Part shown: one piece after another, positions 3,528 through 62,908 of the stretch
How positions within the stretch are numbered: position 1 is the stretch's first letter
How the letters are laid out: the number at the start of each line of letters is the position of its first letter
DNA from: Rhodanobacteraceae bacterium
Lineage (GTDB): Bacteria; Pseudomonadota; Gammaproteobacteria; Xanthomonadales; Rhodanobacteraceae
Length of the DNA stretch: 64,000 nucleotides
Direction: 5' to 3'
Assembly (NCBI GenBank): GCA_035699085.1
Contig: DASSBG010000004.1
Span: 50,281 to 114,280, forward strand
The notes under the pieces: model-generated
Told to the model about the DNA's origin: nothing
The model's input: the letters and a program-made list of their open reading frames with translations, nothing else
Database searches by the model: none
Made by a program: the position numbers and the translations under genes

Positions 3528-4843
3528 TCGCGCACCGCGTCGTCGGCGCCAGGCGTCGGGTCATCGCGCGGATCCTCTGCGCTGGCGGCCAGGCTGTCGA
3601 GGCCGTACAGGCGGCTGGCGCTGTGCAGCAGGTCGAGGTCGCCCTTCAGCGCCGCCTCGCGCAGGTTCGCACTGGGCGCGTGCAGCAGCTTGTTCGTGAG
3701 ATTGTCGGCCAGCCACGCCATGACCTCTTCAGCCGGCTTGCCCCTGGCCAGCTGGGCGCGGGCGCGCTCGAGTACCGCGTCGCGCTGGGCCGTCGCCCGG
3801 TCACGCAGCTCCAGCAGCGGGTTGTGCAGCGTCAGCGCGCCACGCCACGCCATGTAACGATCGACCTGCAGGTCGATGATGGCCTCGGCTTCCTGCGCGG
3901 CGTTCCGGCGCGAGCGGCGGTGGTCGTCGATCACCTGCCGCAGGTCGTCGATGCCGTAGAGGAAGGCGTCGCGCAATTCGCCGGCGCCGGCCTCGATGTC
4001 GCGCGGCACGCCGAGGTCGACCAGGAACATCGGCCGGTGGCGGCGCGCCTGCAGCGCCTGCTCCAGCATGGCGCGCGTCACCAGGGGCTGGCGGCTGGCG
4101 GTGGAGGCGATCACGATGTCGGCCTCGGCCAAGTGCGTCGGCAGGTCCTCCAGGGCGATGGCGTAGCCGCCGAACTGGGTGGCCAGCGCGTGCGCGTTTT
4201 CCAGCGTGCGATTGGCGACGATCAGCCGCCGGGCGCGACGTTCGGCCAGGTGGCGCGCGGCCAATTCGATGGTGTCACCGGCGCCGATCAGCAGCACGCA
4301 GGCCTGGCTGAGGTCGGCGAACACCTGCTCGGCCAGCCGCACCGCGGTGAAGGCGACGGACACCGGCTGGCTGCCGATGCGGGTCTCGGTGCGCACCTGC
4401 TTGGCCACGGCAAAGGTGTGCTGCAGCAGGCGGTCCATCGGCGTGCCGAGGCTGCGGGCGTCGCGGGCCATGCGCCAGGCGTCCTTGACCTGGCCGAGGA
4501 TCTGCGGCTCGCCCAGCACCAGCGAGTCAAGGCCGGTGGCGACGCGGAACAGGTGCCGCACCGCGTCGTCCTCGTCGTAGCGATACAGGCATTGTTCCAG
4601 CTTGTGCGGGGACAATTGGTGATGCGCGTGCAGCCAGTCCACCGGCCGCTCCTCGGCGCCATCGGCCACGGAAACCAGCAGTTCCGTGCGGTTGCAGGTG
4701 GACAGGATGAAGGCTTCGTCGACGCCTTCCACCGACTTCAGGTCGCCCAGCGCCGCCGGCGTCGCCTCGGGGGCAAACGCCACCTGTTCGCGCAGGCCGA
4801 CCGGCGCGGTGAGGTGGTTGACTCCGAGGGATATCAGCGGCAT
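3524..4843 (-). CDS. hemA: glutamyl-tRNA reductase
   Basis: ORF 3524..5329 trimmed to [23 protein letters not shown], a typical HemA N-terminus. An alternative ATG lies at 4879. The upstream part of the ORF is R/P-rich and overlaps the divergent TPR gene. Confidence 0.92.
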
Positions 4844-7324: not shown

Positions 7325-7530
7325 GGGAATGTCAAAGCGGGGAATGGGGAATGGGGAAAGCGCGGATTCGACATCGCGCACTTGCACGACGGCCGGCCCC
7401 GCGAAGCCGAGCGTCGCTGAGGGAAGCGAACATGCTCGCGCGCGCGGCGACAACAACGACCCAGCGCTGCTGCTCTACCGATTCCCGATTCTCGATTCCC
7501 CATTCCCGGCTCTGATTCATTCCCACTCCC
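7325..7530. repeat. composite heptamer-array element (G-rich arm / 119-bp core / inverted C-rich arm)
   Basis: GGGAATG..GGGGAAT GGGGAAT GGGGAAA at 7325-7359. CCGATTC CCGATTC TCGATTC CCCATTC CC...CATTCCC at 7479-7530, the reverse-complement type. Lies between the convergent lolB and porin stops. Confidence 0.9.
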
Positions 7531-7533
7531 GGC

Positions 7534-8724
7534 CTAAAACGCGAACTGGGCGCGCACCTCGACGATGCGCGGGTCGACCGGCAGCTTGCCGCTGTCGCGG
7601 CTCGTCCGCACATAGTTGGCCTGGAGCTTGAACAGCTGGCTGACGTACCAGTTGAGGCCGAGCGTCCAGTCGTGCGCCGAGCCGCCGCGCACCACGCCAT
7701 CATCGAGGTCGATGGTGGAGTAGCGCAGTGCCAGTTCCAGCGCGCCGCCACCGTCGAGGTCGGGGTCGCCAAAGCCGGTGTGGGCGTAGCTGTGCGACTG
7801 GCCGGTGAGCATCCAGCCACCCTGCAGGTAGTAGCCGCTGCCGTCGAAGGTCGGCCCGGCGCGGCGTGCCGCGTGCGCCGCGAGATATTCCCCTTGGATC
7901 AGGAGCGGACCCTGCAGCCAGCCTGCCTCGAAACCGCCGCGGTCGATGTGATCGATACCGCTGAGCTTGCCGGTGTCGACCAGCCGCACCGGCGTCAGGT
8001 GTGTCTCCGGCCGGGCGCGGAAGCGGGCGGTGTGGCTGTCGCGCTGTTCCCGCGACAGCGCCAGCCCGAGGTGCAGGACCTGGCCTGGCGCGCTCATTGG
8101 CGCGTAGACCACGCGCCCGGCGGTGGTGGTGCCGTCGCCGTCGTGGTTGAGGTCGTGGGCCGCAAACCAGAGCGCCTGCACGGTCCAGTGCGGCGTCTTG
8201 TTCCAGGTCCAGCCGACGCCGGCGCGGCGGCCCTCGAAAATCATCTCGACCGGCAGCGCGCTTTCCATGAACATGGTCTGCGCGCCCGATTCGGTGCCTT
8301 TCTCCCAGCCAACCGGGGTGCGGAACTCGCCAAGCTTCCACTGTCCGCCGGCGGTACTGAAGCTGACGTCGTTGTCGGTCCAGGCGTCGGCGTGGAAATC
8401 GTAGCCGACGCGGACGGTGTAGCGGCCTTTCTGCACCAGCCGCAGGTCAAACTGCTGCCGCCGCCAGGTGTTGGCGTCGGTGAACAGCTCGCCGCCGCCA
8501 ACCAGGCGGTCGTGGTCAAAGCGCGCCCAGTCGTACTGGATGTCGCCCGTGAATTGCAGCTCCGCGCCGTTGTCGAGGGAGATGTTGAAGGTGTCGCCGG
8601 GCTTGGCCAGCGCCGTCGCTGCGACAGGCAGCGCCAGCAGCGCCGCGAATGCGACGCTGCCGGCGTGTCGACGAACCGAACTGCTTTTGCGCTCAGGCCG
8701 CAGACGCGTGGTGGGTGATGCCAA
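7534..8724 (-). CDS. phosphate-selective porin O/P family protein
   Basis: ORF 7534..8817 with beta-barrel C-terminus ...EVRAQFAF and LRYSTIDLDD...TLGLNWYVSQLFKLQANY, an OprO/P-like signature. Signal peptide ...VAFAALLALPVAATALA. The start is uncertain: there is no ATG/GTG near the signal peptide and the TTG at 8724 overlaps the hemerythrin gene end. Confidence 0.75.
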   Translation of the reverse strand: MASPTTRLRPERKSSSVRRHAGSVAFAALLALPVAATALAKPGDTFNISLDNGAELQFTGDIQYDWARFDHDRLVGGGELFTDANTWRRQQFDLRLVQKGRYTVRVGYDFHADAWTDNDVSFSTAGGQWKLGEFRTPVGWEKGTESGAQTMFMESALPVEMIFEGRRAGVGWTWNKTPHWTVQALWFAAHDLNHDGDGTTTAGRVVYAPMSAPGQVLHLGLALSREQRDSHTARFRARPETHLTPVRLVDTGKLSGIDHIDRGGFEAGWLQGPLLIQGEYLAAHAARRAGPTFDGSGYYLQGGWMLTGQSHSYAHTGFGDPDLDGGGALELALRYSTIDLDDGVVRGGSAHDWTLGLNWYVSQLFKLQANYVRTSRDSGKLPVDPRIVEVRAQFAF

Positions 8725-9160
8725 GGTCCGATTTGGCCTTGGTCCTGGCAGTTTGCAGCTCCTTGCCAAGCGCCTCCAGGTCCAAGTCGGCCTTCGCGAC
8801 TTTCGGCATGATCTCATTCTCTTCTTCCTTGACGTGGTGCTGCACGTATTCCTTGAGTACCGTCAGCCGCGCGGTAAAGAGCTTCGCGCTCATGTCGTCC
8901 TCGATGTTGGCAATCAGGTTGGCCAGGCTGGCGTGCTCGACCAGCGCCTCGTCCACGAGGCTGCGCTCCTTGCTGCCCAGCGCCTTGTCGGCGGCGGGGT
9001 AGAAAACCTCTTCCTCGATCGCACTGTGGACCTTTAGTTCGTCGCAAATCTGCTGCGCAATCTGCTTTTGTTTGTTGGGTTCGGCCTTCTCGCACTTCTT
9101 GAACAGCTCGTCGACCTTGTCATGGTCGTCCTTCAGCATCTGGATTGCGTTCTTGCTCAT
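8693..9160 (-). CDS. hemerythrin (HHE cation-binding) domain protein
   Basis: ORF 8693..9214 trimmed to MSKNAIQMLKDDHDKVDELF..., with H/E-rich helices (HSAIEEEVFYP, HHVKEEENEIMP). Confidence 0.8.
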   Translation of the reverse strand: MSKNAIQMLKDDHDKVDELFKKCEKAEPNKQKQIAQQICDELKVHSAIEEEVFYPAADKALGSKERSLVDEALVEHASLANLIANIEDDMSAKLFTARLTVLKEYVQHHVKEEENEIMPKVAKADLDLEALGKELQTARTKAKSDLGITHHASAA

Positions 9161-9368
9161 GGGGCATGCCTCAGCGGGTTCTTCAGGTTTTTTGGGGAAT
9201 GACGCAACGCCCACGCAATGCTACGGGCGGGCCATGAACGCCGGCGAAGCGGCGCACGAGGGCGCCGTCGGATGCCGCCTGCGACAGCCCGCCGCCGCTG
9301 CGGCCGCCAGAGGGCGTTCATGCCGGCACGCCTAAGCTCGCCGCGAATTGGCCGCATGGAGCGCCGCA

Positions 9369-9947
9369 ATGGTGCAAGCCGCGATTCCCGAGGAGGCTTC
9401 GAAACCATTGGCCAACAGCGCGCTGCTGATCATCGACATGATCAACCAGTTCGATTTTCCCGGCGGCGACGCCCTGCGCCGCCAATGCGACGACGTCGCC
9501 ACGGCCATCGAGACCCTGCGCCAGCGCTTTGACGAGGCGCACCGGCCGGTCATCTACGTCAACGACAATTTCGGCCGCTGGCGATCAAACTTCGAAAAGC
9601 TGATCGAGCGCTGCGAGCGTGCGGGCAGCGACGGCGGCGCGCTGGCCCGGCGCATGGCGCCGCGGCCGACCGATTACTTTGTCCTGAAGCCGCAGAACTC
9701 GGCTTTCTACCACACGCCGCTGGTGCTGCTGCTGGCCTCGCTGAAGGCGCGCGAGCTGACCTTGGCCGGCATCGCCGGCGACCAGTGCGTGATGCAGACG
9801 GCGATGGACGCGCACCTGCGCGACTACGGCCTGCAGGTGCCGGCGGATGCCACGGCCTCGATCACGCCGGCACGGAATCGGCGCGCGCTCGACTACCTCC
9901 ACGAGGTCGTGGGCGTGGACACCACACCGGTTGCGAGTGGGGGGTAG
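9369..9947 (+). CDS. isochorismatase-family cysteine hydrolase
   Basis: ORF 9348..9947 containing ALLIIDMINQFDF...VIYVNDNF...LAGIAGDQCVMQTAMDA, typical isochorismatase-fold motifs including the catalytic Cys context. Confidence 0.8.
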   Translation: MVQAAIPEEASKPLANSALLIIDMINQFDFPGGDALRRQCDDVATAIETLRQRFDEAHRPVIYVNDNFGRWRSNFEKLIERCERAGSDGGALARRMAPRPTDYFVLKPQNSAFYHTPLVLLLASLKARELTLAGIAGDQCVMQTAMDAHLRDYGLQVPADATASITPARNRRALDYLHEVVGVDTTPVASGG

Positions 9948-10158
9948 GCGTGGCAGGTTTGATCGCGGCGTCGAGACGGCGGCGTCGGCACGCCGGCATG
10001 CAGCGACCAGCGACGGCAGAGCGGTAGCGGCAAAGCCGCGTGCCGGCATGGTCGCCGGTGCCGGGCAAGTGCGGCCCGTGCAGATCATTGCGTGGCGGGG
10101 TGTCGTGCAGGGACGCGATGCCGCACCCGCGCTGCCCGCATTCCCGATTCCCTGCTGC

Positions 10159-11133
<975 letters not shown>

Positions 11134-11143
11134 CCGCGCCTGC

Positions 11144-11401
<258 letters not shown>

Positions 11402-12754
11402 TCACGTGGCGCCCTCGTCGCCATCGTTCCGGTGGCGGCTGAGGGCGCGGCGGCGCTGGTCCAGCAACGGTGAGGTGGTGGTGCCGTGGACAGCGACACT
11501 GGCAGCCACGGCGGTGACAACGATGGCCGACACCAACTGCGCGTGTTGCTGGCCGCCATAGCCGTGGGTGAGGGCATAGGCGAGGTAGTTCAGGCTGCCG
11601 ATGCCGCGGATGCCCAGCCAGCCCATCATCAGCCGCCGTTCCCATGGCAGGTGCAGTCCGAAGGTCGCGATCCAGACGGCTGCCGGCCGCACCAGCACGA
11701 ACAGCCAGGCGGCAACCACCAACCCGCGCCAGTCCCAGTTCTGTGCGATCAGCACGCCGAGCAGCAGCATCAGCAGTGTGCCCAGCAGCCGCTCCAGCGT
11801 GCTGCCGAAGCTGAGCGCGCCATGGACCATCTTGCCGACGGCGCCCAACGGCGTCGGCTCGTCCTCGCCGCGCCAGGCCTCCGTACGCCACTCGGCCGGT
11901 GTCGCCGGCACGCTGCGGTCGCTGCCAGCCTGGCCCTCGCGCGTGACGATCGCCATCTCGGTGCGGCGCAGGCCGAGCCCGGCCGCAAAAACCGCGACAT
12001 AGCCAAGGGTCTGTGCGCCCTGCGCCGCGGCGTAGGTCAGCAGCATCAGCGCCAGCATCAGCAGGTCGCCGGGCGCGCCGGCGCGGGTGGTGGTGCGCAG
12101 ACGCACGATGGCATGCCCGGCGATCCAGCCCATGGCATAGCCGATGGCGACGGCGCCCGGGACCGCCCACAGCACATGCAGCAGGAACCAGTGCGACACC
12201 GTCGCAGCGCCGAACCCGGCGTGCAAGGTCGCCAGGCCCAGCAGCAGGAAGGGCAGGGCGGTGCCATCGTTGAAGCCGGCCTCGCCCGACAGCGCGACGT
12301 GCAGGTCGTCGCGGTCGGTGGCGTCGTTGACCGCCACCTGGCTTGCCAGCACCGGGTCGGTCGGCGCCAACATGGCCGACAGCATCAGCGCCAGCGGCCA
12401 GCTCAGGCCCAGGAACAGGTGCAGCGGGACCGTCAGCCCGGCGACCGTCAGCACCATCGCGATCGACGCCAGCCGTCCCGCCGGGCGCCACAGCGCGCTG
12501 GTGAACGGAATGCGCATCTTCAGGCCGCCGATGAACAGCGACACGATCAGCGAGATCTCGGTCAGCCGCTCCAGCCAGTAGGCATCGTCGGGGAAATCGA
12601 TCGACACCAGCCCCAGCACCAGCGGGCCGGCGACGAAGCCGACGGCCATGTAGATCGCGTAGGTGGTGATCGGCAGGTGGCGCACCCAGCCGGAAACCAG
12701 CGAGATTGTCAGCAGCAGCGCGCCGAGCGCCGCCATCCAGGCGAGGAAGCTCAT
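11402..12754 (-). CDS. cation:proton antiporter (Na+/H+ exchanger family)
   Basis: ORF 11402..12883 trimmed to MSFLAWMAALGALLLTISLV. About 11-12 hydrophobic segments. LAPTDPVLASQVAV is the typical exchanger motif. Confidence 0.85.
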   Translation of the reverse strand: MSFLAWMAALGALLLTISLVSGWVRHLPITTYAIYMAVGFVAGPLVLGLVSIDFPDDAYWLERLTEISLIVSLFIGGLKMRIPFTSALWRPAGRLASIAMVLTVAGLTVPLHLFLGLSWPLALMLSAMLAPTDPVLASQVAVNDATDRDDLHVALSGEAGFNDGTALPFLLLGLATLHAGFGAATVSHWFLLHVLWAVPGAVAIGYAMGWIAGHAIVRLRTTTRAGAPGDLLMLALMLLTYAAAQGAQTLGYVAVFAAGLGLRRTEMAIVTREGQAGSDRSVPATPAEWRTEAWRGEDEPTPLGAVGKMVHGALSFGSTLERLLGTLLMLLLGVLIAQNWDWRGLVVAAWLFVLVRPAAVWIATFGLHLPWERRLMMGWLGIRGIGSLNYLAYALTHGYGGQQHAQLVSAIVVTAVAASVAVHGTTTSPLLDQRRRALSRHRNDGDEGAT

Positions 12755-12980
12755 GCGGCCCGCCCGGCCTGCCGGGGGGCGACGCGCCACCTCAACGTGG
12801 CCACCGCCTGCTTCGCCGCTGTCGCGTTCCGCTGCCGGGCCATCCTTCGCTCCTCCTGCATCCTTCGCGGCGCCCGCCGGCATCGCCGGTCAGGCGATCG
12901 TGGCCGTGCCGGAGTACGGCGGCCAGTCAGGCTGGGCTTGCTAATTTCGTGGTGGGGCAATCCAGACGCGGAGACGATCA

Positions 12981-13169
12981 ATGCCAGCCAAGTCAAAAGC
13001 GCAACAGAAAGCGGCGGGTGCCGCCTTGTCGGCCAAGGAAGGTGAAACCAAGGTCGGCGAGCTGCGCGGCGCGTCAAAGTCGATGTACAAGTCGATGAGC
13101 AAGAAGGAGCTGCATGACATGGCTTCGACCAAGCGCAAGGGCAAGCCGGAGCACAAGTCTGATTCCTGA
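12981..13169 (+). CDS. DUF3008-like small protein
   Basis: MPAKSKAQQKAAGAALSAKEGETKVGELRGASKSMYKSMSKKELHDMASTKRKGKPEHKSDS, a conserved small-protein pattern. Confidence 0.65.
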   Translation: MPAKSKAQQKAAGAALSAKEGETKVGELRGASKSMYKSMSKKELHDMASTKRKGKPEHKSDS

Positions 13170-13182
13170 GGTCGTGGGATGA

Positions 13183-13212
13183 CCGCGCGCCGGAGCAAAT
13201 GCCGGCGCGCGG
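13183..13212. terminator. perfect 11-bp GC hairpin between convergent genes
   Basis: CCGCGCGCCGG-agcaaatg-CCGGCGCGCGG. No U-tract. Located between the stops at 13169 (+) and 13220 (-). Confidence 0.45.
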
Positions 13213-13219
13213 CCGCGGG

Positions 13220-13504
13220 TCAGCTGCGGTTGACGAGCTTGCAGAAGGTGCTGTCGCCGCCGCCGGATTTCTCCTGCTGGTAGAGCAGCGCCAGGTTCGC
13301 GCAGTCGAACTTGTCGAACCAGTCGTCCCAGCTGATCGTTTCAAGATCGTCCTTGCCTGCGCCGCCGGGGAAGTCGATGCGCAGGACCCCGGAGTCGTCG
13401 TCGGCGTTGGCGGTACCGCGTACCGTTGCGGGCTTGCCGTCGTGCTGCTCCACCCAGCGCCGGATTTCCTCGTGGTCGGTGGTGGTTTTGGAATGCGATG
13501 CCAT
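13220..13504 (-). CDS. hypothetical protein (94 aa)
   Basis: ORF 13220..13549 trimmed to MASHSKTTTDHEEIRRWVEQHDGKPATV.... Balanced composition and good GC3. Confidence 0.6.
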   Translation of the reverse strand: MASHSKTTTDHEEIRRWVEQHDGKPATVRGTANADDDSGVLRIDFPGGAGKDDLETISWDDWFDKFDCANLALLYQQEKSGGGDSTFCKLVNRS

Positions 13505-13641
13505 GGTTTCGCCTCCGCATGTGGACTGATTGCTGCGCGTGCCGGGCACATCGGCTGCCGGCTGCTGCGTTGCGGGTTTTTTTACGCTGCGCCAGATGAA
13601 CTGGTGCTGTGCCGGCCCGCTCTCGGTGGCTGAAGCGCTGC

Positions 13642-14505
<864 letters not shown>

Positions 14506-15954: not shown

Positions 15955-16058
15955 GCCGGCCCCGCCGGCCGCGGCGGCCTGTTTGGCGGCAACGATGGGC
16001 CGCGGCGGCTGAAACCCGCCCCGTCCCCTGCTCCCAGTCCCTGCGCCCTGCTCCCTGC

Positions 16059-16190
16059 TATAATGCCCGGCTTTTCCCGCGCTTCGTCCGGCCGCCTCCG
16101 CGGCCGGCTGCGCACAACCCGACTTTCCTGGTCGCGGGAAAGTCAACCAGCCGCTGCGAGGCGGCCAATGCAACCAAGGGCAACAAGCTA
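16059..16190 (+). promoter_or_regulatory. candidate promoter (perfect TATAAT) and structured 5' leader of rplY
   Basis: TATAAT at 16059-16064. Two hairpins in the leader: CCGGCCGC-ctcc-GCGGCCGG (16088-16107) and GACTTTCC-tggtcgcg-GGAAAGTC (16121-16144). Confidence 0.4.
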
Positions 16191-16862
16191 ATGGCAACCA
16201 GACACGAGATGACCGCGCAGCCGCGCAGCGACGAAGGCAAAGGTGCGAGCCGCCGCCTGCGTCGGGCCGGCATGGTCCCGGCCATCATTTACGGCGGGGC
16301 GGAAAAGCCGCAGTCGATCCAGTTCGAGCACGAGGCGGTGGTGCTTGCCGCGCGCAACGAGTGGTTCCTTTCCTCGATCCTCGATCTGTCGATCGGCGGC
16401 AAGAAGCAGAAGGTGTTGCTGCGTGACCTGCAGAAGCATCCGTTCAAGCAGCAGATCATGCACATGGATTTCCAGCGGGTCAGCGAGAACGAGGCAGTGC
16501 GCGTCAACGTGCCGCTGCACTTCGTGAACCAGGAGGTCTCGCCGGCGCACAAGATGGCCGGCGTGGTGGTGTCGCACAACCTCACCGAGGTCGAGGTGTC
16601 CTGCCTGCCCAAGGACCTGCCGGAGCACATCGACGTCGACCTGGCCGAACTGAAGCAGGGCGACCTGGTGCACCTGTCGGACCTGGTGCTGCCGCCGGGC
16701 GTCGAGATCGCGCTGCTGAAGTTCGGCAAGGAATACGACCAGACGGTGGTGTCGGCCCACGCCATGCGCGAGGAAGTCGAGGAAACGCCGGAGGTGCCCG
16801 CCGAGGGCGCGGCCGCGCCGGAGGCTGGTGCGCCGGCAGCCGACGAAGGCGAGAAGAAGTAA
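16191..16862 (+). CDS. rplY: 50S ribosomal protein L25 / general stress protein Ctc
   Basis: RLRRAGMVPAIIYGG...VLLRDLQKHPFKQQIMHMDFQRV with an acidic C-terminal extension, the long Ctc form. Confidence 0.95.
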   Translation: MATRHEMTAQPRSDEGKGASRRLRRAGMVPAIIYGGAEKPQSIQFEHEAVVLAARNEWFLSSILDLSIGGKKQKVLLRDLQKHPFKQQIMHMDFQRVSENEAVRVNVPLHFVNQEVSPAHKMAGVVVSHNLTEVEVSCLPKDLPEHIDVDLAELKQGDLVHLSDLVLPPGVEIALLKFGKEYDQTVVSAHAMREEVEETPEVPAEGAAAPEAGAPAADEGEKK

Positions 16863-16940
16863 GCCGCTGCGCACGCGCCGCATCAGGAGGCTGGATGGTT
16901 TTACCGCCCGGGCTCCTGCGGCGCGGCGCGTTCGGCGTGC

Positions 16941-17558
16941 GTGGATGCTGCCGTGACGGATCTGCAACTCATCGTTGGGCTGGGCAATCCGGGCGCCGAA
17001 TACCTGCGCACGCGGCACAACGTCGGATTCTGGTTTGCCGATGCGCTGGCCCAGGCGGCAGGGGCGCGGTTCGCGGCCGCGCCCAAGCTTCACGGTGAGG
17101 CCTGCAAGCTGGAGGTGGCCGGCAAGCCGCTGTGGCTGCTCAAGCCAGCCACGTTCATGAACGAGAGCGGCCGCTCGGTCTCGGCGGCGCTGCGCTACTA
17201 CAAGCTTGAACCGGCGCAGTGCCTCGTGGTCCATGACGACCTTGACCTGCCGCCGGGCACGGCGCGGCTGAAGTTCGACGGTGGCCACGGCGGCCAGAAC
17301 GGCCTGCGCGACATCATCCGCCATGCCGGCAGCGGATTCCACCGGCTGCGCATCGGCATCGGGCATCCGGGTCACAGGGACCGCGTGCTGCCCTGGGTGC
17401 TGGGCAAGCCCTCGGCACAGGACGAGGAGGCCATGGTCGACGCCGTCCGCCGCTCGCTCGACGTGCTTCCGCTTGCCGTCGCCGGCGACCTCAACGAGGC
17501 GATGAAGAGGCTGCACACCGAAAGCCGGGACCCGGGACCCGGGACCCGGGACCCGTGA
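16941..17558 (+). CDS. pth: peptidyl-tRNA hydrolase
   Basis: LIVGLGNPGAEYLRTRHNVGFWF...HDDLDLPPG..RLKFDGGHGGQNGLRD. An alternative GTG start lies at 16953. The last ~10 codons ([11 protein letters not shown]) are encoded by the (GGGACCC)4 array. Confidence 0.93.
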   Translation: MDAAVTDLQLIVGLGNPGAEYLRTRHNVGFWFADALAQAAGARFAAAPKLHGEACKLEVAGKPLWLLKPATFMNESGRSVSAALRYYKLEPAQCLVVHDDLDLPPGTARLKFDGGHGGQNGLRDIIRHAGSGFHRLRIGIGHPGHRDRVLPWVLGKPSAQDEEAMVDAVRRSLDVLPLAVAGDLNEAMKRLHTESRDPGPGTRDP

Positions 17559-17751
17559 AGGCAGGATCCGGAGCGCCGGAATTTCTGCGAGTTCCGACGC
17601 GAAGTAACGCGATAGCTTGGGCCCTCTTGCGCAGTTGTTGTGCGAAGTCTGACTCTGCGACGTAACTGCTTCCCGGGGTCCCGGGTCCCGGGTCCCGGTC
17701 CCGGTCCCGAGTCCCGGCCCAATCGAAACCCGGGTCCAAACCGAGTCCCGG
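17527..17751. repeat. composite heptamer-array element ((GGGACCC)4 / 119-bp core / (GGGTCCC)n)
   Basis: Left arm 17527-17554. Right arm 17675-17717, with degenerate units continuing to 17751. The arms are reverse complements. Confidence 0.9.
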
Positions 17752-17779
17752 TAGTAACCAGCCTCAGGAGTCCCCACCC

Positions 17780-18871
17780 ATGGGCATCAAATGCGGCATC
17801 GTGGGCTTGCCCAACGTTGGCAAGTCGACCCTGTTCAATGCGCTGACCAAGGCGGGCATCGCCGCGGCCAACTTCCCCTTCTGCACCATCGAGCCCAACG
17901 TCGGCGTGGTGCCGGTTCCGGACCAGCGGCTCGGCGTGCTGGCCGGCATCTGCAAGCCGCAGAAGGTGATCCCCGCGGCGGTCGAGTTCGTCGACATCGC
18001 CGGGCTGGTGGCCGGGGCCTCGAAAGGCGAGGGCCTGGGTAACAAGTTCCTGGCGCATATCCGCGAGGTCGATGCCATCGCCCACGTCGTGCGCTGTTTC
18101 GAGCATGGCGACATCGTGCACGTGGCGGGCAGGATCGACCCGGTGGCCGACATCGAGACCATCGACACCGAGTTGGCGCTGGCCGATCTTGAATCGGTCG
18201 AGAAGGCACTGAACCGCGCCGAACGCGCGGCCAAGGCCAATGACAAGGACGCGTTGGCGCGCAAGCCGGTGTTGCAGAAGCTGGCGACGGCGCTGGGCGA
18301 GGGCCGCTCCGCGCGGAGCGCCGGGCTCGACGAGGAGGAGCGTGCGCTGGTGCGCGACCTGTTCCTGCTGACGCTGAAGCCGTTGATGTACATCGCCAAC
18401 GTGCGCGAGGACGGCTTCGTCGACAACCCGCACCTGGATGCGGTACGCGCGCGCGCTGCGGCCGAGGGCGCCGAGGTGGTGCCGGTATGCGCCGCCATCG
18501 AGGAAGAGATGGCGCAGCTGGATGATGCCGATCGCGACGAGTTCCTCGCCGACCTCGGGCTGGAGGAGCCGGGCCTGGACCGGGTCATACGCGCCGCCTA
18601 TACGCTGCTTGGCCTGGAAACCTACTTCACCGCCGGCGAAAAGGAAGTGCGCGCCTGGACGGTGCGCAAGGGCTCGACCGCGCCGCAGGCGGCCGGCGTG
18701 ATCCACAGCGACTTCGAGAAGGGCTTCATCCGCGCCGAGACCGTCAGCTACGACGACTTCGTCAAGTACCGGGGCGAATCCGGCGCCCGCGACGCCGGCC
18801 GCCTGCGCACCGAGGGCAAGTCGTACATCGTCCAGGAGGGCGACGTCCTGCATTTCCTTTTCAACGTCTGA
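17780..18871 (+). CDS. ychF: redox-regulated ATPase YchF
   Basis: [23 protein letters not shown] with a C-terminal TGS-like ...[18 protein letters not shown]. Confidence 0.97.
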
Positions 18872-18877
18872 AGGGCC

Positions 18878-19160
18878 GGGAATGGGGAATGGGGAATGGG
18901 GCGCCGCCGCGGCGGACGCGGCGATGCCGAGAGTCGGTGACCCGTGACCCTGACCCGTGACCCGTGACCCGTGACCCGTGACCCGCAAAGCGGTGGTCGC
19001 GAGCTTGAGCTGCGCAAAGCAGCCCCAGGATTTCCCGGCATCGCGTCGTTTTGCGCAAGTAAGCCCGGACACACCAACGCTCCGGATTTTGCCTCTACGG
19101 GGTCCCGGGTCCCCGGTCCCGGGTCCCGGGTCGCCTGACCCGCACAATCACGAATCCCGG
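18878..19160. repeat. composite heptamer-array element ((GGGAATG)3, (GTGACCC)7 / 114-bp core / (GGGTCCC)n)
   Basis: GGGAATG x3 at 18878-18901. GTGACCC x7 (one 6-nt unit) at 18937-18984. GGGGTCCCGGGTCCCCGGTCCCGGGTCCCGGG at 19099-19142. The core is homologous, in reverse orientation, to the 17556-17674 core. Confidence 0.9.
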
Positions 19161-19171
19161 CGCTACCGGCG

Positions 19172-19762
19172 CTACCGGCGCCTGCGCGGGAGGTGGTGCC
19201 GCAGGAACTCCATCTGGTCGGCGAGAATGTTGCGGTTGGAGAGGATCAGGTGCTCGACCCAGCTCGGCCGGTAGGGCACGGCCAGCAGCGGCATGTTGGC
19301 CTGCTGCGGCGTGCGGTTGCTCTTGCGGATGTTGCAGGCGATGCAGGCGGTGACGACGTTTTCCCAGCAGTCCGCGCCGCGTCGGGAGAGCGGCAACACG
19401 TGGTCGCGGGTCAGCTGGCCGCGCGGAAAGTGGTCGCCGCAGTACATGCACAGGTGGCGGTCGCGGGCGAACAGCGCGGCGTTGGTCAGCGCCGGCGCCG
19501 GGTCGATCAGGCGGTCATGGCAATGACCGGTGCTGGCAACGATCGGGTGCAGGCGGATCACGCTTTGGCGGCCGTCGTCGCGCTGATGGCCGCCGTGGAC
19601 CGTCAGGCAGGGATCGCCGAGCGTCCAGGCCACCGCCTCGCGTACGTAGAGGCAGACGGCATCCTGCCAGCTGATCCAGTCAAGGATGCGGCCGGTGACG
19701 TCCAGCGACAGGACGCGGGTGGCTTCCAGATCGTTCAGCGTTTGCGGTATTCGGGCGAGCAT
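19172..19762 (-). CDS. HNH endonuclease family protein
   Basis: ORF 19172..19774 trimmed to MLARIPQ. Contains CMYCGDHF...LTRDHVLPLSRRG...WENVVTACIACNIRKSN (HNH/CxxC motifs). Confidence 0.85.
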   Translation of the reverse strand: MLARIPQTLNDLEATRVLSLDVTGRILDWISWQDAVCLYVREAVAWTLGDPCLTVHGGHQRDDGRQSVIRLHPIVASTGHCHDRLIDPAPALTNAALFARDRHLCMYCGDHFPRGQLTRDHVLPLSRRGADCWENVVTACIACNIRKSNRTPQQANMPLLAVPYRPSWVEHLILSNRNILADQMEFLRHHLPRRRR

Positions 19763-19875
19763 GCGAACTCCCATGCCGCGCCGCCTGTGACGGTGCGGTT
19801 GGCAATGTCCGCGCCAGCATAGCGCAATCGCGCGGCGCAGCGGAAGCTGGCACCGCGCGTGTCATCGTGCCCGTC

Positions 19876-20763
19876 TCAGCCGATTTGCGCCTCGCGGGTG
19901 ATCTCGCCCATGCGGCCGTTCTGGTAGTCGACGAAGGCCTGGCGCAGCTCGGCCTGATTGTTCATCACGAACGGCCCGTGGCGGGCCACCGGCTCGTTCA
20001 GCGGCTTGCCGGCCAGCAACAGCAGGCGGGCATCCTGCTCGCCATTGTTGCGCAGGCGCACGCTGTCGCCGTCGCCGAGCATGCCGAGGCAACCATCGTC
20101 GACGCGGATGCCGTTGTCGCCGACGGTCGCCGCGCCGCCGAACACGTAGACCATCGCCTGCTCCTCGGCCGCCACCGCGGTGCTGACGTCGGCGCCGGGC
20201 TTGAGCGTCCAGTCCTGCAGCACGATCGGGATGCGCGTATCGATGCGCGCTTCGGCGCCCAGCGCCGTGCCAGCAATGACGCGCACGCTGGCCAGGCCGT
20301 CCTCGCTGTGGCCGACCGGAATCTCGGCGGCCGACAGCTCCTGGTAGCGTGGCCGCATCAGCTTGTCGCTGGCCAGCAGGTTGACCCAGATCTGGAAGCC
20401 GTGGATGCGCCCGCCCTTGGTGCGGATTTCGGCCGAAGGCATCTCCGAATGCACCACGCCGGCGCCGGCGGTCATCCACTGCACGTCGCCCGGCCGGATG
20501 CGGCCGCGGTGGCCGGCCGAGTCCTCGTGCTCGAATTCGCCCTCCAGCATGTAGGTGACGGTCTCGAAGCCGCGGTGCGGGTGATCCGGCGCGCCGACCG
20601 CCTCGCCCGGGGCGTAGTCGGCCGGGCCCATTTCGTCGATCAGCAGGAACGGATCGGCCATGTCGCGGCCGGCGCTGGGGAAGGGCCGGCGGACGATGAA
20701 ACCGCCGCCTTCACGCTGGCGGTGGGCGGTGCTGATGGTCTTGACTTCGCGAAGCTCGCTCAT
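19876..20763 (-). CDS. pirin family protein
   Basis: Trimmed to MSELREV. Contains PDHPHRGFETVTYMLEGEFEHEDSAGHRG...DVQWMTAGAGVVHSEMP. Confidence 0.93.
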   Translation of the reverse strand: MSELREVKTISTAHRQREGGGFIVRRPFPSAGRDMADPFLLIDEMGPADYAPGEAVGAPDHPHRGFETVTYMLEGEFEHEDSAGHRGRIRPGDVQWMTAGAGVVHSEMPSAEIRTKGGRIHGFQIWVNLLASDKLMRPRYQELSAAEIPVGHSEDGLASVRVIAGTALGAEARIDTRIPIVLQDWTLKPGADVSTAVAAEEQAMVYVFGGAATVGDNGIRVDDGCLGMLGDGDSVRLRNNGEQDARLLLLAGKPLNEPVARHGPFVMNNQAELRQAFVDYQNGRMGEITREAQIG

Positions 20764-35665: not shown

Positions 35666-36014
35666 GGTGAGCGGTGAGCCGGAAACACGCAGGGCTCGTC
35701 GGAGCGGCTCCTCCGATTCCCGATTCTCCATTCCCCATTCCCGCGAAGCGGCGCCAAGCGCACCCGCTATCGCGTTTCACCAGACCACCACCGCCGTCCA
35801 CATCGGGTTACGGCCTGCGGCCTGACTCGACCTGCGGCGTCACAACCGGCCTCGCACCTGTGGGTCGGCTGGCATCGCAGCTGCGGAATCCGACATGGCC
35901 GCTTTGCCAGTCCCCGGTCCCTGGTCCCTGGTCCCCGGTCCCCGTTCGTGCCCTCAACGCACGATCGGGTTACCCTGCTCTCCGATTCCCCCCTTCTCCA
36001 TTCCCGATTCCCGG
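35666..36014. repeat. cluster of heptamer arrays plus a REP-like hairpin in a divergent promoter region
   Basis: (GGTGAGC)2 at 35666-35679. GATTCCC-type array at 35714-35743. REP-like TCGGGTTACGGCCTGCGGCCTGACTCGACCTGCGGCG at 35803-35839. (GTCCCYG)n at 35911-35944. GATTCCC-type array at 35984-36014. Confidence 0.85.
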
Positions 36015-36022
36015 CTCAAACC

Positions 36023-41295: not shown

Positions 41296-41850
41296 ATGAG
41301 CTTCAGCCTCAACAGCGAGCCTTTCACCCTGCAACGCGACTGCGCGGCCGTGCTGGTGCCCGCCGGCGACCAGGTCACGCTGCCCGCGGGGCAGATCGGT
41401 TACATCACCCAGGCACTCGGCGGCAGCTTCACCGTCTACGTCGAGGGCAACCTGTTCCGCATCGTCGGCAGCGACGCCGACGCGTTGGGCAAGGATCCGC
41501 CCAAACCCATCGAACTGCCGCCCGATGCGGGCGACAAGGATGTCGAAAAGGCGGTCTGGGACCAGCTGCGTACCTGCTTTGATCCGGAGATCCCGATCAA
41601 CGTCGTCGAGCTGGGGCTGGTCTACGATGTCAGCGTCGAGCACCGCGACGATGGCACGCGCAGCGTCTACATCAAGCTGACGCTGACCGCGCCCGGCTGC
41701 GGCATGGGCGACATCCTGGTCGACGACGCGCGTACCAAGGTGGAAATGATCCCGACGGTCGAAGAGGCCGACATCGACTTGGTCTTCGACCCGCCCTGGA
41801 ACTACTCGATGATGTCGGACGCGGCAAAGCTCGAGACGGGGATGCTGTGA
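41296..41850 (+). CDS. SufT-like Fe-S cluster assembly protein (DUF59 domain)
   Basis: VWDQLRTCFDPEIPINVVELGLVYDV...LTLTAPGCGMG is the DUF59/MIP18 signature. The N-terminal extension is typical of SufT. Confidence 0.8.
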   Translation: MSFSLNSEPFTLQRDCAAVLVPAGDQVTLPAGQIGYITQALGGSFTVYVEGNLFRIVGSDADALGKDPPKPIELPPDAGDKDVEKAVWDQLRTCFDPEIPINVVELGLVYDVSVEHRDDGTRSVYIKLTLTAPGCGMGDILVDDARTKVEMIPTVEEADIDLVFDPPWNYSMMSDAAKLETGML

Positions 41851-41955
41851 GGCGGTGAGCGGCGGGCCGCGGCGGTCTGCGGTGCGGTGAGCGGTGAGCG
41901 GAAGAGCGCCGCGGCGCGCAGGTTGGCGGTGAGCGAAGCGAACCCCAACACGCCA
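41851..41955. repeat. GGTGAGC-type arrays plus the left copy of a 35-bp inverted repeat
   Basis: GGCGGTGAGCGG and GGTGCGGTGAGCGGTGAGCGG lie between 41851 and 41901. AGGTTGGCGGTGAGCGAAGCGAACCCCAACACGCCA at 41920-41955. Confidence 0.85.
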
Positions 41956-42494: not shown

Positions 42495-42555
42495 GGCGGT
42501 CGGCCTGGTGAGGGGCGAGCCGCCTAGTCTAGCGGGCTGTGCCCTGCGCGGCAGC

Positions 42556-42711
42556 GGGACCTCGGGATCTCGGGACGCGGGGCTCGGGGTTCGGGGTTCG
42601 GGACAGGACACGGGACTGGGGACCCGGGACCCGGGACCCGCAAGGGCACTGGCTCGGCCTCTGCGTGGGTGCAGGCTGGCGTGTTGGGTTCGCTTCGCTC
42701 ACCGCCAACCT
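42556..42711. repeat. G-rich heptamer array plus the right copy of a 35-bp inverted repeat
   Basis: GGGACCTCGGGATCTCGGGACGCGGGGCTCGGGGTTCGGGGTTCGGGACAGGACACGGGACTGGGGACCCGGGACCCGGGACCC at 42556-42640. TGGCGTGTTGGGTTCGCTTCGCTCACCGCCAACCT at 42678-42711. Confidence 0.9.
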
Positions 42712-43871: not shown

Positions 43872-44345
43872 GGGACTCGGGATTACCCGGGACCGGGGAC
43901 CCGGGGCCCGGGACCGGAAAAGCGCGGGATCGGCTTGCCGGATCCGAGCAGCGACGCGGCCGCGCTGCGCACTGAGGCGCCGCATCGGCGCGGCGTCCGC
44001 CGGCCGTCGTGCGCGACCAGCCGAGGAGCCTGCATCGTCCGCGTTCAGACGCACGCGGGACCCGGGACCGGGGACCGGGGACCGGAAAAAAAAAGCGCGG
44101 GATCGGCTTGCCGGATGCGACCAGCGACGCGGCCGCGCTGCCTGTTCGAAGCGCCGCATCAGGCGACGGGTGCAGCCCTGCAGTCGCCACGGGCCGGGGC
44201 GCAATCCGCGTCATCCGCGTTGACGTGCCCACGCGTCGTCCCCGAGTCCCGGGGCCATGCGGTGGCAATCGTGGCGCGGCCATGTCGTCGGCGGCTGCTG
44301 CGCGGCTGATCCCGCGCCTTTACGGGTCCCGGGTCCCCGGTCCCG
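43872..44345. repeat. two direct copies (~170-bp period) and one inverted partial copy of an array-plus-core unit
   Basis: Array 43872-43916 followed by AAAAGCGCGGGATCGGCTTGCCGGATCCGAGCAGCGACGCGGCCGCGCTGC. Array 44057-44085 followed by AAAAGCGCGGGATCGGCTTGCCGGATGCGACCAGCGACGCGGCCGCGCTGC. Inverted GATCCCGCGCCTTTACGGGTCCCGGGTCCCCGGTCCCG at 44308-44345. Confidence 0.9.
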
Positions 44346-44350
44346 CGCCT

Positions 44351-52873: not shown

Positions 52874-53171
52874 GGGATTCGGGACCGGGGACCGGGGACC
52901 GGGGACCAGGGACCGGGGACCAGGGACCAGGGACCAAGGACCAGGGACCAGGGACCAGGGACCAGGGACCAGGGACCAGGGACCAGGGACCGGGGACCGG
53001 AAGAGCGAACGCCGGGGCCACCAATGCAGCAACCCTGCATGATTTTGCTCTGGCCATCATCAAGGGAACGCAAAACGACACGCGGCGGCACCGCCCGTGC
53101 GACTGCGACACTGTCCCCGCGCATCCCGGTCCCTGGTCCCCGGTCCCGGTCCCCGTTGCGCCGAGTCCCGG
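52874..53171. repeat. composite heptamer-array element with an 18-unit arm
   Basis: 18 consecutive 7-nt units at 52874-52999: GGGATTC, then GGGACCG/GGGACCA variants and one AGGACCA. 125-bp core. Inverted CCCGGTCCCTGGTCCCCGGTCCCGGTCCCCG at 53125-53155, plus GAGTCCCGG at 53163-53171. Confidence 0.92.
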
Positions 53172-62724: not shown

Positions 62725-62742
62725 CGGCCGGTATTCGTGATC

Positions 62743-62908
62743 GGGGATTGGGGATTGGAGACCAGCGCAGGGCTGGCGGTGAGCGATGCCGGCGCTACCG
62801 CAGGCGACGGGAGATCGCGCGGCAGCGGCGTCGGGGCAGGGGCGCGGCATGATCCCGCGCCTTTGCGAAGCCCTGCTCACGAATCACCAATCCCGGCTTC
62901 ACCTCACC
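62743..62908. repeat. composite heptamer-array element (GGGGATT arm / ~122-bp core / C-rich arm)
   Basis: GGGGATTGGGGATTGG at 62743-62758. The core ends with GATCCCGCGCCTTTGCG (62851-62867). GAATCACCAATCCCGGCTTCACCTCACC at 62881-62908. Confidence 0.8.

Follow-up and report, generated by a model that had tools for sequence, protein, structure and literature searches.

Two GC-rich composite sequences flank ychF in a 64-kb stretch of a Rhodanobacteraceae genome (69% GC; hereafter, the window), one lying between pth and ychF (E1, 17525-17717) and the other between ychF and an HNH endonuclease gene (E2, 18937-19132). What kind of element are they, and does their position on either side of ychF carry meaning? 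A sequence-only reading of this DNA had regarded them as diverged, oppositely oriented copies of one sequence that bracket an essential gene and might mediate its inversion or deletion. We find that the feature is real and was correctly described, with all of the quoted strings present where they had been placed, but that it was over-interpreted. In the explanation that we favor, and hold to be reasonably probable, E1 and E2 are members of a class of intergenic elements, distributed genome-wide, in which convergent, complementary heptamer arrays surround a variable core, and which would act post-transcriptionally as transcribed stem-loops. Judging by the number, placement and orientation of its repeat units, this class is the Rhodanobacteraceae counterpart of the GGGAATC-type repeats of Xanthomonas.

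Each element consists of complementary tandem-heptamer arms around a core of ~115 nt. The 5′ arm of E1 (17525-17555, plus strand) was delimited by Tandem Repeats Finder (TRF) as (CCGGGAC)x4.4, corresponding to GGGACCC units with 100% matches, and an inverted-repeat search identified its partner at 17673-17698, the two arms being 96% complementary over 26 nt. The core that forms the loop of this hairpin (17556-17670, plus strand) starts with GTGAAGGCAGGATCCGGAGCG and is followed by a 3′ arm of GGGTCCC-type units (17671-17717, plus strand; 6.9 copies with 87% matches, as defined by TRF, sequence and fold), whose degenerate units run on to about 17752. In E2, the arm on the ychF side comprises (GTGACCC)x7.1 (18937-18985, plus strand; TRF and folds), every unit of which bears the same G-to-T variant and thus contributes one mismatch with the partner arm; its G3 tracts occur on the minus strand only (GGGTCAC). 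The E2 core (18986-19099), whose minus-strand sequence proved in alignments to be a homologue of the E1 core, starts with GTAGAGGCAAAATCCGGAGCG, running from 19098 down to 19078. It is followed by the HNH-side arm, (GGGTCCC)x4.7 (19100-19132, plus strand; TRF and inverted-repeat search), the reverse complement of which is 97% identical to the E1 5′ arm over 30 nt. As the sequence-only reading had proposed, each element is predicted to fold arm to arm as a stem-loop of ~200 nt, with computed energies of -119.5 kcal/mol for E1 (z -6.7) and -117.5 kcal/mol for E2 (z -5.05). A search against Rfam 15 gave no match at the gathering threshold near E1 or E2, and none at E <= 1 in 17400-19300.

The proposal that the two cores are diverged copies in opposite orientation held up when tested against shuffled sequences. 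Local alignment of the E1 core with the reverse complement of the E2 core gave a score of 22 (z = 7.3) that none of 5000 dinucleotide shuffles reached, in contrast to a z of 0.24 for the same test with the cores in the same orientation. Under harsher scoring, the inverted alignment yields a z of only 3.6, and softer scoring together with anchored tests was needed to establish the homology. The first 22 nt of the cores are well conserved (17/21 identical), and the remainder, with 57/99 positions identical, is significantly similar by itself (matched by 2/2000 shuffles in global and 11/2000 in local alignment). The spacing from ATCCGGAGCG to ACGCGAT is 31 nt in both copies. Homology between the elements extends to the outer limits of the arms and no farther, and the flanks do not align. 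A consensus fold of the two cores computed by RNAalifold is weak (-15.6 kcal/mol), two sequences being too few for a claim of conserved core structure.

No further core of this type was found by nhmmer in the window or in 1.6 Mb of sequence from relatives; weak matches in three Dyella loci were rejected, as they lie inside a conserved coding frame. Pattern scans of public genome and metagenome collections returned, at the sensitivity used, chance matches only. A 17-nt degenerate pattern was too short, matching genome contigs at random across all phyla; a longer composite pattern had one match, within a coding region of an unrelated metagenome-assembled genome (MAG), that was rejected as chance; and the metagenome scan produced two matches, both on low-GC contigs and both attributable to chance. 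Within the window, the six other cores are unrelated to those of E1 and E2, and the only other related pair of cores is adjacent and tandem (43916/44086, z 16.6). Since this second case is also local, cores seem to duplicate locally through their arrays rather than to transpose. A 14-mer, AAAGGCGCGGGATC, occurs with at most 1 mismatch at two loci, at 43918-43931, 44091-44104, 44308-44321 (minus strand) and 62851-62864 (minus strand), and all four copies sit inside heptamer-armed elements; at 44296-44322 and 62838-62870 it forms part of a GC-rich hairpin followed by TTT, resembling a terminator. The sequence with which the E1 and E2 cores start, GTGAAGGCAGGATCC, is only suggestively like this 14-mer, and we do not claim a shared motif at the junction of arm and core.

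Is the presence of E1 beside ychF peculiar to this genome? The 5′ arm of E1 starts inside the last codons of pth, 11 of which it encodes, the pth stop codon TGA (17556-17558) forms the first triplet of the core, and the 3′ arm ends ~60 nt before the ychF start. In the two nearest relatives (L283 and L284, whose Pth proteins are 76% and 74% identical to that of the window), the same site carries (CGGGACC)x4.4 overlapping the end of pth, a core of ~155 nt and (CGGGTCC)x4.3, with ~45 nt remaining to the ychF start. The spacer between the genes measures 218-222 bp in these relatives and 221 bp in the window, and comparison of the open reading frames (ORFs) and their translations revealed the same array-encoded tail of Pth in all three. 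The cores of L283 and L284 bear no similarity to that of E1, and cores at this site are unrelated between genera. Frateuria hangzhouensis (L121) has (GGGATTC)n and (GAATCCC)n separated by 25 nt; Rhodanobacter umsongensis (L127) has (GGGAAC)n and (GTTCCC)n separated by ~55 nt, with its Pth tail encoded by GGGAAC units; and Dyella retains decayed remnants. Thus, GGGATTC, GGGAAC and GGGACCC units occupy the same pth-ychF site in different genera, and in a matrix of duplex energies the best 5′ partner of each 3′ arm is the arm of its own unit type. E1 is the conserved intercistronic pth-ychF hairpin of this lineage, orthologous and old. To judge from these alignments and pairings, the stem is maintained at this site while the sequence of its units and its loop are replaced, which is the best evidence that the paired arms, rather than the core, are what matters.

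The history of E2 differs from that of E1. In L283 and L284, a gene for a 4HBT thioesterase follows ychF after 20-30 bp, E2 is absent, and the ychF/HNH junction of the window represents a break in synteny. In 80 relatives, the HNH gene is located elsewhere and not beside ychF, and no E2-like sequence was found downstream of the HNH gene in the relatives examined. We infer that E2 is a diverged local copy of E1, homologous from arm to arm only, that came to lie at a rearranged ychF/HNH junction. With E1 orthologous in relatives that lack E2, and with the same architecture present at four other places in the window, the idea of a special composite bracket around ychF does not stand. The accompanying description of ychF as essential also needs correction, because in E. 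coli ychF is dispensable and pth is the essential gene.

The four other places belong to a dense population of heptamer arrays. The window contains 19 arrays of period 7 (0.30/kb), as against 13 (0.009/kb) in 1.41 Mb of Dyella, Rhodanobacter and Frateuria loci that were fetched by means of the HNH gene, a density ~30 times that of the relatives. Six convergent pairs are formed, in which a G-rich or GGGACCC array on the left and a complementary array on the right enclose a core; there are no divergent pairs, and all six fold arm to arm. Besides E1 and E2, these comprise a pair with (GGGGAAT) and (ATTCCCC-type) arms between lolB and a porin gene (7335-7512), an element, flanked by msrA and an acyl-CoA dehydrogenase gene, that has GGGACCC arms and a core duplicated in tandem (43880-44348), a pair that includes (GGGACCA)x17 upstream of an EF-G-like gene (52878-53158), and a pair with (GGGGATT) arms flanked by the gene for a Mur ligase and a second gene convergent with it (62736-62893). 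Once the starts of ORFs had been corrected using the positions of Pfam domains, all 19 arrays proved to be noncoding or to overlap last codons only. They lie ~0-26 nt past stop codons with the G-rich strand as the sense strand, or else they precede start codons, the sense strand then being the C-rich one, as is the case for the C-rich arrays upstream of ychF, a pntA-like gene and the EF-G-like gene. In this small sample, unit counts range from 3.3 to 5.0 in 12 of the arrays, many of which have ~4.4 units; two arrays have 2.9, and five are longer (6.9, 7.1, 8.1, 16.9).

How might such elements arise and act? Under the stem-loop explanation, arrays would grow and become homogenized by slippage. 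As GGGACCC equals its own reverse complement at 6/7 positions, arms could align with one another either way, so that recombination or template switching through the arms might copy a core or flip it; given arms that are alignable in both orientations, an inverted copy, or the flipping of a core between its own arms, is easy to imagine. When transcribed together with the flanking genes, the arms would zip into a GC-rich RNA stem of ~30 bp, and this stem, in preference to the core, would carry the function, whether as a processing site (a substrate of the RNase III type), as a barrier guarding the upstream 3′ end or as a brake on read-through. Because the pth stop codon falls where the 5′ arm meets the core, the E1 stem might be opened by ribosomes as they finish translating pth. 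A promoter scan found no sigma-70-like promoter in 16800-19900, and ychF is therefore probably cotranscribed with pth through E1. An arrangement of a related kind is present in the rplL-rpoB spacer of L284 (19846-19940), in which an attenuator-like GC-rich hairpin with a U-rich tail is followed, ~35 nt before rpoB, by a hairpin whose arms are GGGAATG-type units facing ATTCCCC-type units. The corresponding spacer of E. coli contains an attenuator and then an RNase III site. In X. axonopodis, a GGGAATC repeat lies between rplL and rpoB (Rehm et al., 2015, supplement; PMC4692102).

Several observations weigh against a selected RNA stem. The (GTGACCC)x7 arm of E2 has fixed a mismatching variant in every unit, a pattern more suggestive of neutral slippage than of selection on pairing. 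Two groups of arrays lack a complementary partner, namely three C-rich arrays upstream of the pntA-like gene (35713-36015) and mixed G-rich arrays upstream of an asparaginase-like gene (42555-42640). The 5′ arm of Frateuria pairs equally well with foreign GGGTCCC arms by way of G-U pairs, indicating that the specificity of the arms is not absolute. Finally, the loops are at least 115 nt in length and no U-tract follows the arms; E1 and E2 are therefore not canonical intrinsic terminators, and a consensus scan for intrinsic terminators found none within either element.

The mismatching E2 variant and the partnerless arrays together make a largely neutral origin by slippage a serious rival. On this account, which we regard as unlikely although it deserves the most attention among the alternatives, the elements are functionless by-products of mutation, in which slippage produces the arrays, complementary arms are templated through hairpin or cruciform intermediates, and little harm is done in intergenic DNA. 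The turnover of array units between genera at the same locus would be expected of such a process, as would the sweep of the mismatching variant through a whole E2 arm, the growth of one array to 17 units (16.9 by count, 52881-52998, the longest in the window) and the lineage-specific, ~30-fold bloom; the literature, too, credits slippage for the excess of heptamers and has identified no function for them. It is harder to reconcile with a pth-ychF hairpin that has been kept in place, with matched arms, over at least three unit types, with a polarity that is convergent in 6/6 of the oppositely oriented pairs in the window and in the 70-75 convergent pairs of Xanthomonas (Rehm et al., 2015), or with the tight placement at stop and start codons and the recurrent four-unit mode. 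A further possibility, which we consider doubtful, is that arms 100-240 nt apart replace their units in concert, so that each element is a self-homogenizing module operating through the folded hairpin or cruciform, for example by templated repair or by repeat dynamics dependent on transcription and RNase III, as in the hmw locus of Haemophilus influenzae. Were this the case, the near-palindromic arms would also allow cores to be duplicated, inverted and traded among loci, and would seed rearrangements; two of the breaks in synteny found in the window are located at such elements. An action at the level of DNA, in which a G-quadruplex (G4), i-motif or cruciform affects transcription, replication, supercoiling or the binding of nucleoid proteins, as has been proposed in terms of G4s for the repeats of Xanthomonas, seems to us distinctly improbable. 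The G3 tracts recur every 7 nt in arrays of about four units, oligonucleotides of the Xanthomonas repeat make G4s and i-motifs in vitro (PMC4692102), and an energy model predicts G4s for the (GGGAATG)x3.4 array after ychF (-9.6 versus -1.4 kcal/mol, using ViennaRNA with G-quadruplex terms) and for the minus-strand (GGGTCAC)x7. However, the same model favors Watson-Crick pairing over G4 for E1, E2 and the GGGACCC/GGGTCCC arms; a GGGACCC arm is self-complementary and folds singly at -20 to -30 kcal/mol, (GTGACCC)x7 is without a G3 tract on the plus strand, and the compensatory match between arms indicates a duplex rather than a G4.

Could E1 and E2 instead be mobile? That homology runs exactly from arm to arm, that the ends are inverted repeats and that the two copies, separated by 1.4 kb, are oppositely oriented would suit a non-autonomous element similar to a miniature inverted-repeat transposable element (MITE) or a REPIN (a doublet of repetitive extragenic palindromic, REP, sequences), with heptamer arrays as terminal inverted repeats and a transposase encoded elsewhere. 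We judge this very unlikely, in that neither copy shows a target-site duplication and no direct repeat is common to the two sets of flanks; that only two copies, and neighboring ones, were found within 64 kb of the source genome, with none added by the relatives or the public collections; that E1 occupies an ancestral, orthologous site; and that a scan of 30 window proteins revealed neither a transposase nor a RAYT (REP-associated tyrosine transposase). Moreover, Rehm et al. (2015; PMC4692102) report no association of such repeats with mobile elements. The remaining proposal, that inverted and direct repeats constitute a recombination device flipping or deleting the ychF segment, can draw on an inverted match of 30 nt at 97% identity (17525-17554/19100-19129), on a direct match at 96% (17674-17698/19098-19122) and, anecdotally, on two breaks in synteny with L283 and L284 in the window, which sit at heptamer-armed elements (E2 and that at 7339-7508) and run counter to the higher local stability reported for the repeats of Xanthomonas (Rehm et al., 2015; PMC4692102). 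Even so, E1 and E2 share no exact stretch longer than 18 nt, whether compared directly or in inverted orientation. Such a length is short for RecA-dependent recombination. In addition, the same arm sequence occurs at 42619 and 44324, so that nothing about it is specific to ychF; ychF retains its ancestral orientation relative to pth; and relatives have E1 without E2. For this one genome, and setting rare inversion aside, an invertible ychF cassette is thus extremely improbable, and the idea is unsupported and should be dropped.

The genes surrounding the two elements are arranged on the plus strand as rplY (16191-16862), pth and ychF, followed by the HNH gene on the minus strand, pirin and ggt. 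The pth ORF (16941-17558, plus strand) encodes a peptidyl-tRNA hydrolase, as its translation and PF01195 homologues indicate, the closest of these being 76% identical. The ychF ORF (17780-18871, plus strand), preceded by a ribosome-binding site, AGGAG, at ~17768, encodes an Obg-family GTPase/ATPase with 87% identity to Frateuria YchF. The HNH endonuclease gene (19172-19774, minus strand; Pfam PF14279/PF01844) is convergent with ychF and has its 3′ end toward E2. A 9-bp tandem repeat, CCGGCGCTA, of 2.8 copies (19157-19181) overlaps the end of the HNH gene and reads on the minus strand as a repeated Arg-Arg-stop, so that two TAG stops lie in frame at a distance of 9 nt. Between ychF and E2, 7 nt past the ychF stop codon, TRF detected the unpaired array (GGGAATG)x3.4, which has four G-tracts (18878-18901, plus strand). 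Other partnerless arrays are (GTGAGCG)x8 directly after an Fe-S assembly gene (41847-41901) and (CCCTGCT)x5 between prs and rplY (16026-16059), and an array of 4.1 GGGACCG units is located at 44057-44085.

Farther from ychF, a block of ~7 kb (7534-14505) lies between lolB and the tRNA/prs region, as compared with the order lolB-ispE-tRNA-prs in L283 and L284; ispE is missing from that place. The block encodes a phosphate porin, an isochorismatase, a bacterial type IB topoisomerase, an Na/H exchanger and a short-chain dehydrogenase/reductase, and is bounded on the left by the heptamer element at 7339-7508. A repeat of a different kind, resembling REP/SMAG sequences, occupies the position after ychF in a Stenotrophomonas MAG (L126, ~4093-4175), where a run of about five 13-mers (GTAGAGCGGACTT) in tandem comes after the stop codon, ahead of the complementary AGTCCGC. 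A chance match to an unrelated, low-GC metagenome contig (L282, ~970-1110) brought to light (GAATAGT)n, a core and (ACTGTTC/ACTATTC)n following a stop codon. From this AT-rich example of the convergent design, it may be that convergent heptamer arrays are widespread beyond the Xanthomonadales.

Among known systems, MITEs such as Correia, ERIC and RUP resemble the elements described here in being short and noncoding, with inverted ends and hairpins when transcribed, but MITEs have terminal inverted repeats that are unique, are flanked by target-site duplications and exist as many dispersed copies whose interiors are homologous; for E1 and E2, we found none of these features. The REP sequences and bacterial interspersed mosaic elements (BIMEs) of enterobacteria and the REPINs of Pseudomonas are likewise abundant, extragenic and composed of inverted units that form hairpins in transcripts, often past stop codons or between convergent genes. 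REP and BIME sequences stabilize upstream mRNA and modulate termination and translation. In contrast, REP sequences, for whose movement RAYT transposases are responsible, each comprise one imperfect palindrome, 20-40 nt long and with a conserved head, whereas the arms of E1 and E2 are tandem 7-mers of variable copy number and no fixed length. The 49 elements of Geobacter metallireducens with four tandem GGGACCG, for which a regulatory role has been proposed and never shown (Aklujkar et al., 2009; PMC2700814), have nearly the same unit, likewise with four copies in an array, and recur at many loci of the genome; they differ in occurring within genes as well as between them, in not being described as convergent pairs and in belonging to an unrelated phylum. 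Heptamer repeats of cyanobacteria and Beggiatoa are also found at many loci per genome (PMC4679880).

A mechanistic parallel is provided by the 5′ untranslated region of Haemophilus influenzae hmw1A, in which a transcribed heptamer repeat constitutes an arm of a long hairpin that is an RNase III substrate, controls expression and is required for changes in repeat number (Rapun-Araiz et al., 2025; PMC12721329). There, as here, a tandem heptamer array serves as the arm of a long RNA hairpin beside a coding region. The hmw1A hairpin has one repeat arm only, (ATCTTTC)n opposite a G-rich region, and is AT-rich, phase-variable and confined to a single virulence locus, while in the window both arms are GC-rich arrays and the genes are housekeeping genes, with the action of RNase III being a conjecture by analogy.

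The closest match is to the G-rich heptamer repeats of Xanthomonas campestris and X. axonopodis, with the unit GGGAATC or, more generally, GGGANTN (Rehm et al., 2015; PMC4692102). They are a subset of the long simple sequence repeats (5-11 nt) noted by Mrazek et al. (2007), among which heptamers dominate in Xanthomonas, Burkholderia and cyanobacteria (as summarized in PMC4679880). Few unexplained features of Xanthomonas-type genomes are as abundant as G-rich heptamer repeats, the question of their function dating from 2007-2015. Xanthomonas genomes contain about 185 GGGAATC-type arrays each, ~90% of them intergenic, with a clear four-unit mode, a location on the sense strand within 50 bp of a stop codon (or, where the C-rich strand is sense, ahead of a start codon), and convergent pairs able to form stem-loops or cruciforms (PMC4692102). 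Arrays in the window, which come from the same bacterial order, are alike in being tandem heptamers with a G3 tract per unit, in their intergenic location and four-unit mode, in sometimes overlapping a stop codon and in their frequent convergent pairs capable of forming stem-loops. The arms of E1, the HNH-side arm of E2 and the 18878-18901 array all combine the heptamer with a G3 tract, and placement agrees as well, as seen in the pth stop codon, located where the E1 5′ arm meets its core, and in the GGGAATG array just past the ychF stop codon. The consensus of the unit is where E1 and E2 depart, as their arms (GGGACCC, GGGTCCC and GTGACCC) have C rather than T at position 6; only neighboring arrays fit it, GGGAATG at 18878, the closest in the window to the published GGGANTN type, and GGGGAAT at 7339. 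For this reason, we file E1 and E2 as a variant of the class.

Nothing in this comparison gives a sign of a new kind of system. The class was already known, though functionally unexplained, and what is new is the GGGACCC unit, the family Rhodanobacteraceae and the long, locally duplicated cores. Relative to the repeats of Xanthomonas, the GGGACCC/GGGTCCC unit is close to its own reverse complement and is predicted to form a hairpin in preference to a G4, and the cores are long, at 115-240 nt, and in two cases duplicated. Local duplication can extend to a whole unit, from arm to arm. Extending the class to a self-complementary unit yields a case poorly matched by the popular G-quadruplex explanation and well matched by a duplex stem. 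To the picture drawn from Xanthomonas, the pth-ychF locus adds conservation across genera combined with unit turnover, and thereby comparative evidence that the stem is maintained as units and loops are replaced; its hairpin in cultured Frateuria and Rhodanobacter strains offers a concrete place in which to test what these repeats do.

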